From Candidatus Sigynarchaeum calidifontis (GTDB lineage Archaea; Asgardarchaeota; Lokiarchaeia; Sigyniarchaeales; Sigyniarchaeaceae), in contig JAUQYZ020000055.1 of the NCBI GenBank assembly GCA_030587475.2, forward strand, positions 1 through 23,356: a stretch of 23,356 nucleotides of DNA, in the 5' to 3' direction. Positions 608-4,833 of the stretch are shown here, in pieces (position 1 is the first letter of the stretch; the number at the start of each line of letters is the position of its first letter). The notes beneath the pieces are model-generated. The model was not told the DNA's origin, did not search any database, and saw only the letters and a program-made list of their open reading frames with translations. The translations under genes were made by a program, and so were the position numbers.

Positions 608-1450
608 TCATGGGAACGAATAGCCCGCCTTGACAATGCAGCGCTTGATGAACGGGACGTTGTCAGTCTCGAAGCCGTCAACATCAGCGTTAATGTAATC
701 GATGGCAAGTTGCTCGTCATCAGGAATGCGTGGGCAAAACTTGACGCCGCATTCATGGGCATAACCGATGCGGCTGGCTGGTAAATACTTGTAATGCGTC
801 GTGAAGCCCCATATCTTGTGTTTCTTGCAGCGACGCAGCACCCACTTGCCCGCGAACGAGCCCAGGGGGATAGCTTGTAGAGCGAAGCCATATCCCTTCT
901 TGCCCGCGAAGTGATCGTACAACGGGAGCCCGGCCCTCACGAACGCCTTGCGAAGCGAGATAACGGCGAACGGGTTGAAGCTCGAGAACACGACCGGTGC
1001 TTTCAAGGTTTCGTGGTCGATATCGGCTTGCTTTGCAGCCTCTACTATTCGCGCGTTGAAGTGAAACTCCTTGAGCTCGATCTGCGCTCCGACATGGTGA
1101 TCGTGCAAGAACGCGAGGAACTCGTCGAGCGACAGGATCGAGGCGCCGTGCTCGAACTTAATCGCTTTCAAGAACGACATCGTGTGGTCATTGACCTTCC
1201 CGACAGGCAGCTCGTGAAATTCCGATTCAGGCGGGATGCTGGTCGCGTGTTTCGTGATGTGATCGATGGTCTTGTTATGGACAAGGGCGATGTTGCCATC
1301 CCGCGTGCCTCGGATGTCACATTCGAGCATGTTGGCATCTTCCTTCAAGGCTTCCTCGAACGCTGGTATGCTGTTCTCCAGTAAACCGCCCTTGAACGCG
1401 CCTCGGTGCGAGTCGATCGTGAACTCGTGGTTTTCGAGCGCCCGGTTCAT
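608..1450 (-). CDS. Glycerophosphodiester phosphodiesterase (GDPD) family protein
   Basis: SHRG..LENSIPAFEEA..ECDIRGTRDG..VH, ELK, SSFN and a C-terminal VDGFETD motif. Start moved to ATG 1450 (MNRALENH), just before the domain; the ORF track starts at TTG 1561. Confidence 0.9.
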   Translation of the reverse strand: MNRALENHEFTIDSHRGAFKGGLLENSIPAFEEALKEDANMLECDIRGTRDGNIALVHNKTIDHITKHATSIPPESEFHELPVGKVNDHTMSFLKAIKFEHGASILSLDEFLAFLHDHHVGAQIELKEFHFNARIVEAAKQADIDHETLKAPVVFSSFNPFAVISLRKAFVRAGLPLYDHFAGKKGYGFALQAIPLGSFAGKWVLRRCKKHKIWGFTTHYKYLPASRIGYAHECGVKFCPRIPDDEQLAIDYINADVDGFETDNVPFIKRCIVKAGYSFP

Positions 1451-1636
1451 GCACCTAGATCCGTCCTTTGAAAAGAAATAATTTTCTGGCACGAGGCGAC
1501 GCACGGACACGCCACCAGACAGGCCATGCATATTGTCGATGACGGAACGAGGGGGGAACAAGAAATATAAACAGAGTTAAACATTACCGGCCGCAAGGGC
1601 CGTGAGGCGAAAGGGACCGGATCTTTTACCAATCGA

Positions 1637-1843
1637 TCAACAGAACAGGAACCGCATCGTGTCGGCGGGCAAGAACTCCTCGAACGGGCCGAAGTGCTTG
1701 CAGTCAAGGCAGATGTACATGTACTCGAGATCCTTCACGACGTTGGTTTGCTTGGGCTTCTTGCGGGAACCGCACGCGCAGCACTCGTAGTATCCGACGT
1801 CCTTTTTTTTCGAGCTCGTTTTTACATCATCCTCCTTTTTCAA
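1637..1843 (-). CDS. Small zinc-ribbon protein (68 aa)
   Basis: CCAC...CLDC pair of CxxC motifs and a Lys-rich N-terminus. The TTG start is uncertain. Confidence 0.7.
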   Translation of the reverse strand: MKKEDDVKTSSKKKDVGYYECCACGSRKKPKQTNVVKDLEYMYICLDCKHFGPFEEFLPADTMRFLFC

Positions 1844-1866
1844 GCGGTTTGGCTTTGGATATAAAA

Positions 1867-1991
1867 TGGATGCAAGAATCCCCGGCCTACCTCCCAGTTT
1901 TCCGATGAAAAAAATCTGGTTGGTGGACGGCTGGTATCGACGTGTGGGGTCCCGCCGGAATGTTGTGTCGATACCACGGATTTTACATCCA
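1867..1991 (-). ncRNA. Candidate ~125-nt three-way-junction structured RNA (sRNA, or leader of the Zn-ribbon gene)
   Basis: Terminal helix 1978-1991/1867-1881 has 14 bp with one bulge and a G-U pair that forms only on the - strand. Perfect 10-bp stem 1967-1976/1932-1941. Second arm 1885-1931. Starts about 24 nt downstream of a BRE-TATA. Confidence 0.55.
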
Positions 1992-2013
1992 ATCTATTCT
2001 TGCGCGCTTCGCG

Positions 2014-2028
2014 TATTTAAGTCTTTTC
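2014..2028 (-). promoter_or_regulatory. Archaeal BRE-TATA promoter
   Basis: Minus strand reads GAAAAGAC-TTAAATA; predicted TSS near 1990, matching the 5' end of the structured element. Confidence 0.6.
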
Positions 2029-2092
2029 AAAACGGCGCAAGATCTTGTGCCTTTCTAGCTAAATTTCGACAATTTCGAAGAGAAAATCAAGT

Positions 2093-2288
2093 CCGGACGA
2101 GATCCTTTTGACAGGGTAGTTTAGACGAATTTGTCAATACAGAAACGGCAATCATCACGACAACGCAACCAAAGCCAGGAGGAACCATCGGAGATGGTTC
2201 CATCAGTGACACTGATCAGTTCTCGCGTGAAAAACTGCGAGAGGTTTATCGATGATCTAAAAGATCCAAGGAGCAAACGTCCCTCCGG
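2093..2288. other. Cluster of back-to-back hairpins, possible second structured RNA
   Basis: TTGACA/TGTCAA (2108-2137), GGAACCATC/GATGGTTCC (2181-2201), ATCAGT/ACTGAT (2202-2216), TCTCGC/GCGAGA (from 2221), GATCT/AGATC. Possible closing helices GGACG/CGTCC and TCCTT/AAGGA. Confidence 0.35.
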
Positions 2289-2340
2289 GGTGACTAATGG
2301 AAGAATAAAGAGTTTCGCACGAGTTTTCATTGCGATTGCG

Positions 2341-2360
2341 GATATTAATAATGCTTTTCC
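2341..2360 (-). promoter_or_regulatory. Putative BRE-TATA promoter facing the hairpin cluster
   Basis: Minus strand reads GGAAAAGCA-TTATTAATAT. Confidence 0.4.
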
Positions 2361-2452
2361 CTTCTGCGCGAGGCATAGCAAAGATTTCTTCCGATGATCT
2401 AAGCTCTTAAACCATCAAAAAAGCCATTTCGCTTAGAATGCCTATTTCATCC

Positions 2453-3259
2453 TCACGTGGGAAACTGTGGGAAGTCCATCAAATATCCGACGAATGCGAG
2501 GAACGCTTTTCCTTTTGGCGTGAGGGACAGTAACGATCCCCTCCGCCCAGCCTTTTCCTCCTTCACGATGCCAAGCGCGGTGAGCGGGATGATTCTTTGC
2601 TTGAGTTCCCTGTAATATCCAAATTGTGGATAGTTCTTGATGATGTCAGTATAGGATTGGGCATCGGCATCTAATAAATAAAGCGGGATGAGAAATAACT
2701 TGTAATCAAGCTTCCAGTTGATCTCCTGGAGCAATTCCTGGATTTTCGGGGCGTATTCGAGCAGCGCGGGGAGTTGGGACTTGATGATCTTGAAGCTCTG
2801 GTATGACTGCTCCGGCGTGCCGAAGCCAGGCAATTGCGGGAACTTGGTCGCCAAGAACCGGAACAGCGTGAATTCATTGGTCTCGAACGCGAGCATGTAG
2901 AAGAAGAATGCAGAAACGAGCCTGCCCTTGTTCGTGGCGTGCAAGAACTTCGCGTTTTTCGGCCCGGTCTCCTCCGTGATGAGCCGGAACTGCGTCAAGA
3001 TGGGCACGTGGGGACTGATATCCTTGTAGTGCCGGAAAAATGGCCACCGCTTGATCAAGTCGGCGATGCTCTGTGGCTTCTCGGTAAGCACGAAGAGCAA
3101 GATGAAGGTCTTCCAGTCGATCTTCCACTCCACCTTCTGGAAATACTTGAACATGTAATAACTGTTCACGAGGAAGAGATCCTCGATGCGTTCTCCGAGG
3201 AGCAAGAACTTCAAGAATTTTTCCTCTTCGGGGATCTCCGATTTATCGATTTCGACCAT
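2453..3259 (-). CDS. Protein with two tandem winged helix-turn-helix repeats, putative DNA-binding regulator
   Basis: Internal duplication: WKIDWKTF..QSIADLIKRWP..LITEE..ATNKGR..FFFYM versus WKLDYKLF..QSYTDIIKNYP..GIVKEE..LTPKGK..FVGYL. Both end in the LTxKG wing terminus typical of MarR/HxlR/ArsR-like folds. Confidence 0.7.
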   Translation of the reverse strand: MVEIDKSEIPEEEKFLKFLLLGERIEDLFLVNSYYMFKYFQKVEWKIDWKTFILLFVLTEKPQSIADLIKRWPFFRHYKDISPHVPILTQFRLITEETGPKNAKFLHATNKGRLVSAFFFYMLAFETNEFTLFRFLATKFPQLPGFGTPEQSYQSFKIIKSQLPALLEYAPKIQELLQEINWKLDYKLFLIPLYLLDADAQSYTDIIKNYPQFGYYRELKQRIIPLTALGIVKEEKAGRRGSLLSLTPKGKAFLAFVGYLMDFPQFPT

Positions 3260-3269
3260 CGTGAACCGA

Positions 3270-3390
3270 CCGTTATGATGTAATTTTCACACCAGGGGTG
3301 AACGGGCACGCATCCTTAACTTCCGAACGGGACCCAAATCCGGCTCGCTACGCGTCAATATATGTCCTGGACTTGCTAATAAACCATTCC
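3270..3390 (-). promoter_or_regulatory. TATA promoter and structured ~95-nt 5' leader of the tandem wHTH gene
   Basis: Minus-strand GGAATGG-TTTATTA at 3390-3377, followed by two nested stem-loops (3355-3308 and 3305-3270) whose G-U pairs form on the - strand. Confidence 0.4.
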
Positions 3391-3441
3391 GTCAAAGAAG
3401 AAAGAATGAAATTAAAATAACGAATACCCTATACGAGGATA

Positions 3442-4833
3442 TTATACAAGGATGCCCCATTCCTTCCGATCGAAGGCCCATTTCAAGTATTCCTTGCCCG
3501 GCCGTGCCGCATAGGCAACGAGATAATCGACCCTTTCTTTTTCAGTTTGCAAAGATTGGTATTCCTTGGTTTCGACGATCCCCGCCACCTCCTCGAAAGC
3601 CTTTGCACCGGCGCGGGTTCCATCGGGGTGGCCATGGATACCGCCGCCAGCGTTGCACCCGATCTTGTAAGAGTTTCCGATCGCCCCGTTGAACCGCCGG
3701 ATACGAGGCAGCGCGCCCGGGAACAGCCCGCCAGACGCCATGGGAAGTACCGGCTTCAAGTGCTCCCACCGTTTCGTGAGCCAGCGGTTCAAGTACATGG
3801 TCGAATCGAGCCACTCTATCGGCATCTCCTCAGGCTCCTCGTCCTTGGCGAGTGATTCTTGAAATTCCTCGCGCTCGCCCATCTTGCCAGAACCGTAGGT
3901 ACCCGTGTGCAAGTAATCAGCGCCGGCCATTCGGAACATCTTTGCCCAGACCAGGAACGTCATGCCGAACTCCTTGCCCCTCGTCATGGCACCGTGCATC
4001 GCCCGGTGGATGTAGATCGGGTGCTTGAGGTCGGCCTGGTCGCGCACGTCGTGCACCGCGTTGAGCCCGGCGATGACGCCGTCGATCATGAACGAGAAAC
4101 CGGGAGTGCCCAGGTCTTCTGCGAGTTCTTGTACCTCCCGCGCCCGGCCTACGATGTTCCGGGTCGTGATGTTGTGCGCGTACATCTTCGGGTTGCCCGT
4201 TTTCTCCGCGATTTTCTGCTGGCGGGTCATCACCTCGGTGAACCTTTCCTTCCACGGGCAAAAGGTCTGGTTGCACAAGTTCTCGTCGTCCTTCACGAGG
4301 TCGGCCTCCCAGAATACTTGCTCGGCGACCTTGGCCCAGTCGACGGGGTTCAGCCCCATCTTTGGCTTCACGATGGACCCGGCGATCATGCGCTTCATGT
4401 TGCCGAACAGCTTGTAAACGCCATCAACGCCGAACCGGGGCCCGGGGAACTGTCGCACGATCGCAGGAGGAAAATATACGTCCAGGAACAAAGCTTTTTT
4501 CAAGACATGCAAGCCAAAATAGTTGCCGCCGATGTTTGCCCAAACGTTGTTGAATCCACCCGAGATATCCCAATTGTGAGCTGGTATCCCTATGTAGCCG
4601 ATGTTGCCTTTCTCGTGGATGATCCACGCGTCTGCCTGGTTCGATTCCTCGGTTTTTGTCGTGATATCGACCCACGTGCCCGAGGATGTTTCTTTTGCAA
4701 GTTCAATCAACGCCTGGTGTATGTCATCCTTCGTGTCATTCTTGTAACTGACTTGGACGGCGATGATGATCGCGTCCTTGTTCTCCTTGAACTTTTCCAA
4801 CCGTTCGATCGGGGTATAGAGGGTCCTGTCCAT
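3442..4833 (-). CDS. rbcL: RuBisCO large subunit, divergent archaeal form III-like
   Basis: Active-site motifs present (spinach numbering): ETSSGTW (E60, T65), GNYFG (N123), KPKMGL (K175, K177), KDDE (K201, D203, E204), HRAMH (H294, R295, H298), HTGT..GK (H327, K334), ASGG (S379), GGGIHGHP (G403, G404). Confidence 0.93.
   Translation of the reverse strand: MDRTLYTPIERLEKFKENKDAIIIAVQVSYKNDTKDDIHQALIELAKETSSGTWVDITTKTEESNQADAWIIHEKGNIGYIGIPAHNWDISGGFNNVWANIGGNYFGLHVLKKALFLDVYFPPAIVRQFPGPRFGVDGVYKLFGNMKRMIAGSIVKPKMGLNPVDWAKVAEQVFWEADLVKDDENLCNQTFCPWKERFTEVMTRQQKIAEKTGNPKMYAHNITTRNIVGRAREVQELAEDLGTPGFSFMIDGVIAGLNAVHDVRDQADLKHPIYIHRAMHGAMTRGKEFGMTFLVWAKMFRMAGADYLHTGTYGSGKMGEREEFQESLAKDEEPEEMPIEWLDSTMYLNRWLTKRWEHLKPVLPMASGGLFPGALPRIRRFNGAIGNSYKIGCNAGGGIHGHPDGTRAGAKAFEEVAGIVETKEYQSLQTEKERVDYLVAYAARPGKEYLKWAFDRKEWGILV

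Follow-up and report, generated by a model that had tools for sequence, protein, structure and literature searches.

The window, i.e. the whole 23,356-nt stretch of Candidatus Sigynarchaeum calidifontis DNA analysed here, carries genes for a form III RuBisCO, a 268-aa tandem winged-helix-like protein and a small basic zinc-ribbon protein in an order (positions 608-4833) that is kept across several lineages (L066, L067 and L068), which suggests that the three form a functional module. A gene for a GDPD-family phosphodiesterase is often found next after them. Between a promoter and the zinc-ribbon ORF, on the minus strand, lies the element that concerns us, a segment of ~123 nt (1990-1868), and its surroundings comprise the following features:

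2028-2014, minus strand: BRE and TATA box, read from the sequence; the region is 85% identical to that of the same-genus genome G001
1990-1978, minus strand: 5' strand of the terminal helix P1 in the minimum free energy (MFE) fold, beginning at the predicted transcription start G1990 and forming a GGAU...AUCC palindrome of its own
1976-1932, minus strand: arm 1 in the MFE fold, with a 10-bp stem, a 7/8-nt internal loop, a 3-bp stem and a GGCG tetraloop
1930-1882, minus strand: arm 2 in the MFE fold, an interrupted helix whose 5' strand is rich in C (GCCGUCC...) and whose 3' strand is purine-rich and Shine-Dalgarno-like (GGAGGUAGG)
1914-1908, minus strand: U7 tract within arm 2, transcript positions +77 to +83
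1881-1868, minus strand: 3' strand of P1 (GGAU...CAUCC) in the MFE fold
1867-1836, minus strand: variable spacer, including ATTTTAT at 1867-1861; 41-44% identical to relatives, with indels
1835-1817, minus strand: Shine-Dalgarno GGAGG (1835-1831) and start-codon region, with GTA (1825-1823) and ACG (1819-1817) in the window, GTG and ATG in relatives
1843-1637, minus strand: small basic zinc-ribbon ORF, 68 aa from the TTG at 1843; in relatives annotated as 60 aa from an ATG that aligns with 1819
1602-1588, minus strand: GC hairpin 3' of the ORF, near the ends of both RNA-library contigs described below (about 1610-1617), a weak hint

The promoter is of the archaeal type, its BRE being followed by a TATA box that reads TTAAATA (2020-2014), and the GGAUG with which the element begins at 1990 stands 23 nt past that box. 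The Y-shaped fold of the RNA is real and lies well beyond chance: left unconstrained, the MFE fold of 1990-1868 is a three-way junction of P1, arm 1 and arm 2 at -52.3 kcal/mol, compared with -34.2 +/- 3.6 kcal/mol for 200 dinucleotide shuffles (z = -5.0), none of which folds as well. A first-pass annotation, made from the sequence alone, had drawn just such an RNA behind a BRE-TATA promoter on the minus strand and had named comparison with shuffled sequences as a check; its parts can be recovered where it had placed them. The terminal helix pairs 1990-1978 with 1881-1868 and contains one bulged C and one G-U pair, the main stem of arm 1 is a perfect 10-nt inverted repeat (1976-1967 with 1941-1932) that leads through the internal loop to the tip UCC-GGCG-GGA (UCCGGCGGGA, 1959-1950), and arm 2 forms in the same unconstrained fold. 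The ATTTTAT that it had noted after the terminal helix is likewise there in this genome, and the first in-frame start of the zinc-ribbon gene, the TTG at 1843, comes 24 nt downstream of the helix, as that annotation had estimated. Farther upstream, about 100 nt from the TATA box (2144-2118, minus strand), there is also a block of ~25 nt with a GAC-N6-GTC palindrome, nearly identical in this genome (G000), G001 and L066 and reversed in the distant L064 (1243-1264), which is probably a transcription-factor operator.

The element belongs to a few lineages of uncultured Asgard archaea only. Eight distinct sequences of it were collected, namely those of the window, G001 (the same as L065), L066, L079, L080, L077, L085 (truncated) and the distant L064, and all copies sit between the same conserved TATA box and the same zinc-ribbon gene; no occurrence away from that gene was met in the searches made. 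A first covariance model (R1), run together with blastn on the genus, the family and the order, found the element in G001 only (84% identity), and neither in G002 and G003, which represent the family's other two genera, nor in 150 genomes of the order. The zinc-ribbon protein was also traced through protein collections and their contigs, which were rescanned with a second model (R2); applied to 150 class-level genomes, R2 returned no further element, the related genomes searched numbering about 300 in all. An exact core pattern had G001 as its sole other match among 185,579 species genomes, and a scan of metagenome proteins gave one locus.

The distance between the TATA box and GGAUG amounts to 22-23 nt in six lineages, with variable sequence in between, and each of the six has a pyrimidine/purine step at the predicted start; the fixed spacing and this step together indicate that the transcript starts at the base of P1. 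The zinc-ribbon gene occurs without the element in G002, G003 and L068, and the element is therefore dispensable for the gene. The leaders of the orthologues in G003, G002/L067 and L068 are shorter, with a hairpin of ~45 nt or none, and those of G002 and G003 keep a CAUCCA ~30 nt before the ribosome-binding site. It follows that the leader of this gene family is evolutionarily plastic, and that the Y shape is the elaboration of one lineage.

How well is the structure itself conserved? The window element is 80% and 68% identical to those of two relatives, as against 41-44% for the adjacent spacer and 32-35% farther upstream, and the zinc-ribbon ORF is 92% and 87% identical to those of the same two. 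In an alignment of the eight sequences, which are mostly close relatives and were fitted to the model, so that pair counts are inflated, especially in P1, standard pairs fill 88.7% of the cells versus 25-47% when the partners are slid, and 20 pairs are changed on both sides, values that none of 500 column shuffles matches. Covariation, on which the first-pass annotation had made its reading depend, is found in both arms: five of the ten stem pairs of arm 1 show compensatory changes (e.g. U-A to C-G), and so do five pairs of arm 2, where 88.8% of the cells are paired across the eight sequences. It is these changes in arms 1 and 2 that appear convincing, and judged from this model-fitted alignment their support is modest but real. 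Two further features stand out by their constancy, the tip of arm 1, identical in all seven sequences that have the arm, and GCCGUCC at the junction, an invariant single-stranded feature.

The terminal helix calls for a more guarded treatment. A one-register shift of L064 and L077 in the alignment inflates its pair counts, and its ends (GGAUG/CAUCC and AUCC/GGAU) are essentially invariant, the departures being just U-A to U-G or G-C to G-U. GGAUG opens every homologue whose 5' end is included and a CAUCC-like 3' end is kept in all, and each strand of P1 is a GGAU...AUCC palindrome in itself; two local hairpins, or palindromic operator sites acting at the DNA level, would explain the P1 ends equally well. 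The long-range helix is favoured thermodynamically in five of the seven complete homologues when each is folded alone. A MAFFT alignment of four sequences analysed with RNAalifold did not recover P1, because indels misalign its ends.

Folded by themselves, the three complete close homologues adopt the Y shape; the MFE structures of G001 and L066 are Y-shaped (z = -2.7 and -2.2, respectively). An element-only refold of G001, L066 and L077 gave no Y, L066 (and probably also G001) being incomplete and L077 carrying an extra 8-bp hairpin (about 540-565) between the 5' strand of P1 and arm 1; from this hairpin it can be seen that the junction of P1 and arm 1 tolerates insertions. The distant L064 folds with z = -2.05 and keeps P1 in an otherwise ambiguous interior; at the level of the alignment, P1 and arm 2 are retained, arm 1 is different and shorter, and the U-run is absent.

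Known RNA families were sought with covariance models, another check that the first-pass annotation had proposed, and none was matched: Rfam 15 gave no match at gathering thresholds for the whole window, and at E <= 10 the 341 nt around the element returned chance-level matches only (E >= 1.2), all to unrelated families and none to RF00001. Several other identities were rejected. ARAGORN finds no tRNA or tmRNA gene in 1500-2500. As to a coding function, no stop codon interrupts the zinc-ribbon frame across the element in this genome and in G001, but the frame has no start codon there, frame-shifting indels separate the relatives, L066 and L064 have in-frame stops, and two ORFs in databases (96 and 118 aa) that extend across the element look like gene-caller artefacts. 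Sequestration of the Shine-Dalgarno sequence in a conserved alternative fold was considered as well; the predicted partners of GGAGG differ among six homologues (the U-run in two, the 3' strand of P1 or the spacer in three, a downstream segment in one), and for this reason no sequestering fold is claimed. That CAUCC might pair by turns with the GGAUG of the 5' end and with that in GGAGGAUG is speculation, the idea resting on 5 nt.

The downstream gene encodes a basic zinc-ribbon protein of ~60 aa that is conserved across the family at 65-67% identity, as is the order of the RuBisCO, winged-helix and zinc-ribbon genes; the 68-aa form seen in this genome is recorded from four contigs. Relatives start it with GTG and ATG placed 5 and 11 nt past GGAGG. 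In this genome the same positions read GTA and ACG, and since both of the relatives' start codons are thus mutated, the gene may be poorly translated here; the sole canonical in-frame start, the TTG at 1843, was made by a small insertion and has no Shine-Dalgarno sequence in front. Directly past GGAGG there is also a tiny upstream ORF (1830-1822, minus strand), which reads ATG ATG TAA in the window and ATG ATG TGG AAA TGA in most relatives (L066 1190-1204); in the latter, the main ATG and the TGA of this ORF share bases in ATGA, as is typical of coupled translation. Pfam contains no family that scores above its cut-off with the zinc-ribbon protein. Membership of the Elf1 zinc ribbon family (PF05129) was considered and rejected: of seven family members scanned, four score just 13.6-18.1 bits where 29.8 would be required, the window's own protein has no Elf1 match in the Pfam scan, the best E-value for an Elf1 in the PDB is 0.05, and the predicted model of the protein, itself confident (pLDDT 80), has no significant fold match to the PDB by Foldseek, so that Pfam, the PDB sequence search and Foldseek offer only generic, sub-threshold ribbon matches.

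Is the element an RNA in its own right, or is it part of the zinc-ribbon mRNA? Public sequencing runs were compared with positions 1400-2500, and a 347-nt contig from a sludge metatranscriptome, derived from a relative 90-95% identical to the window, covers 1617-1963, running from the ORF across the spacer into the element, of which it includes two-thirds. Relatives are present in runs from sludge and from freshwater sediment. The contig has no substitution in 1876-1963, and its spacer of 26 nt differs by 10 substitutions and seven deleted bases. A second contig from the same study covers 1615-1840, and both end ~25 nt past the stop codon, close to the GC hairpin. Outside 1615-1963 these runs give no cover within 1400-2500, which is not evidence of silence. 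The longer contig fits co-transcription of the element and the ORF, as a hint rather than as proof of a single transcript, given that the contigs are assemblies from one study in which DNA carry-over is possible; it also gives a hint of expression, the other point on which the first-pass annotation had staked its reading.

The segment that joins the two parts tells the same way. The 32-nt spacer is the least conserved segment and varies by indels, and no second promoter is conserved in it, or for the zinc-ribbon ORF, among the homologues compared. The ATTTTAT after P1 occurs in this genome alone, its place being taken by C-rich sequence in G001, L066, L079, L080, L077 and the RNA-library relative, and no terminator is therefore conserved behind the element. 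The first-pass annotation had left a choice between an unassigned sRNA and a cis-regulatory leader; the leader is the part that has gained support, from the fixed position between promoter and gene, the bridging contig and the lack of a second promoter, and a stand-alone RNA of 125 nt with a terminator of its own finds no support, the ATTTTAT being unconserved and the contig joining element and ORF. We consider it fairly probable that the element is a lineage-specific structured 5' leader (~123 nt) of the zinc-ribbon mRNA, and one that probably acts in cis to regulate it.

Other explanations have to be weighed against this one. A free-standing sRNA of ~125 nt, ended by ATTTTAT or by processing and working apart from the gene, would agree with the pairing of its 5' and 3' ends, a trait of many stable RNAs, with a transcription start exactly at the base of the helix and with the T4 run that follows the helix in this genome; since that run is missing from the six relatives just named, the element is never found apart from the zinc-ribbon gene, no promoter specific to the ORF is conserved and the RNA contig bridges the two, such an sRNA seems quite improbable. 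The palindromic P1 strands raise the question of whether the signal is in the DNA, as two GGAT(G)-N4-6-(C)ATCC sites at +1 and about +111 that would be operators for a dimeric regulator, the candidate being the tandem winged-helix protein encoded upstream, with the RNA fold incidental. Both strands are indeed palindromic in every homologue, most clearly in L080 (GGATG-N4-CATCC twice), and the winged-helix-like gene is always the upstream neighbour, but the spacing of the palindromes varies from about 100 to 123 bp, and neither the compensatory changes in arms 1 and 2 nor the invariant tip of arm 1 would be explained, which makes this proposal highly improbable. A divergent 5S rRNA or a solitary MITE-like insertion has almost no credence with us. 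The size and three-helix topology, the terminal inverted repeat that resembles MITE ends and the fact that a canonical 5S was not detected in the MAGs of this family speak for it. The 5S likeness, which the first-pass annotation had already qualified by the missing signature sequences, is one of topology only: the element has no RF00001 match (threshold 38 bits) even at E <= 10, whereas the canonical and dissimilar 5S rRNAs of closed genomes from a sister family score 54-67 bits, it lacks the CCGAAC of loop C and the loop E signatures, it aligned poorly with three canonical 5S sequences of the same order, and it is confined to the leader of one gene in a few lineages and absent from the sister genera G002 and G003. 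The missing 5S is uninformative and reflects an assembly gap, because 16S and 23S genes are missing from these MAGs as well; in G000 neither 16S, 23S nor a canonical 5S was detected, and the single-contig relative G003 yielded neither a 23S nor a canonical 5S. As for a MITE, copies were counted by blastn and covariance-model searches, as the first-pass annotation had advised, and the element proved single-copy in the 5-Mb assembly with no dispersed copies, and hence not a MITE; there is no target-site duplication either, the flanks sharing a trivial ATT here and nothing in G001 or L066, and the position relative to the promoter is fixed across lineages. As a separate observation, nhmmer with the relatives' 5S picked up a fragment like the 5' half of a 5S elsewhere in the genome (G000:C97:9893-9953; L002 about 1467-1527), a sequence conserved in G001 (C451; L071), the other genome of the genus; it comprises helices II and III with the CCGAAC loop and has no recognisable 3' half.

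The U tract of arm 2 is the basis of a further rival. Most transcripts might stop at U7-9 (about +83) and release an RNA of ~85 nt, in which the 5' hairpin and arm 1 would be followed by an unpaired C-rich segment and terminal oligo-U; this RNA could act in trans or bind an Sm-like protein, with the gene being expressed by read-through only. Oligo-T tracts are an established termination signal in archaea, and the conserved run of U7-9 (+77 to +86) is long enough to terminate archaeal RNA polymerase, which makes an attenuator of this kind a serious rival. The U7 tract of the window lies above the minimum of an archaeal oligo-U terminator (>=5 U), a run of U6-U9 is present in arm 2 of all seven close homologues, where its partner strand varies and is often unpaired, and the 100 nt that follow long ORFs in this genome are ~3-fold enriched in T>=7 runs. 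Such runs are nevertheless common (~1 per 4.8 kb per strand, i.e. 209 per Mb of strand versus 25 expected from base composition, or ~8x), 44% of them lie inside long open frames, L064 has none at this place, and the RNA-library contig runs through the tract. The sequence past the U-run (the 3' strands of arm 2 and P1) is likewise conserved and complements the part before it, from which it follows that the full-length form matters too, and on balance we think attenuation unlikely. To a like degree doubtful is the bolder suggestion that the element represents a new, Asgard-specific class of RNA, in which an aptamer-like junction would sense a ligand or the zinc-ribbon protein and thereby decide between termination at U7-9 and read-through. 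If true, it would be a case of riboswitch- or attenuator-type control of transcription in archaea, of which very few examples are known to us.

For the structured leader, the course of events might be as follows. Transcription would begin at G1990, 23 nt past the conserved TATA box, and a three-way junction, closed by the 5' end of the transcript itself, would form in the nascent RNA, with the Shine-Dalgarno sequence and the ORF ~30 nt beyond the junction. The leader would then act in cis, in a regulatory or a stabilising capacity. A trans-acting factor would most likely recognise arm 1 by its invariant apical loop and arm 2 by its bulged base, and the basic zinc-ribbon protein itself is the obvious candidate for such a factor, implying autoregulation; both the regulatory role and any such partner are inferred. 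The U7-9 tract may serve as a site of premature termination or of binding by an Sm-like protein that sets the amount of full-length mRNA, and the leader may, in addition, cap the 5' end against decay.

The significance of the element depends on which of these capacities it has. Very few structured cis-regulatory RNAs are, to our knowledge, known from archaea, and a search of the literature found no description of this element and no structured cis-regulatory RNA described for Asgard archaea. With its defined promoter, covarying fold and fixed genetic partner, an uncharacterised basic zinc-ribbon protein whose gene always adjoins those for form III RuBisCO and the tandem winged-helix protein, it offers a concrete and testable entry point to how genes are controlled after initiation in this lineage, and it can serve as a covariance-model seed for mining metagenomes. 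Should it be merely a stabilising leader, it would be a narrowly distributed RNA motif, new but ordinary.

Three known systems invite comparison. With archaeal termination or attenuation at oligo-U the element shares a conserved U7-9 tract ~80 nt past the start; it differs in that the tract lies inside a helix arm, upstream of conserved RNA, and is read through in the RNA contig. With 5S rRNA (RF00001) it has in common a length of about 120 nt, a three-way junction and paired ends, but it gains no covariance-model score, lacks CCGAAC, belongs to an mRNA leader and is missing in sister genera. The closest likeness is to structured mRNA leaders, a category that comprises bacterial riboswitches and the autoregulatory leaders of ribosomal proteins as well as, in archaea, the L1 operon site of Methanococcus and the K-turn leader bound by L7Ae. 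In contrast to these, the element has no Rfam match, no conserved expression-platform switch was found in it, and it occurs in a few Asgard lineages only. What it shares with them is a compact domain of several helices that occupies the 5' end of the mRNA, a P1 that closes just upstream of the ribosome-binding site, invariant loops, covarying stems and a tie to one gene family; it is a new RNA motif within this known category.
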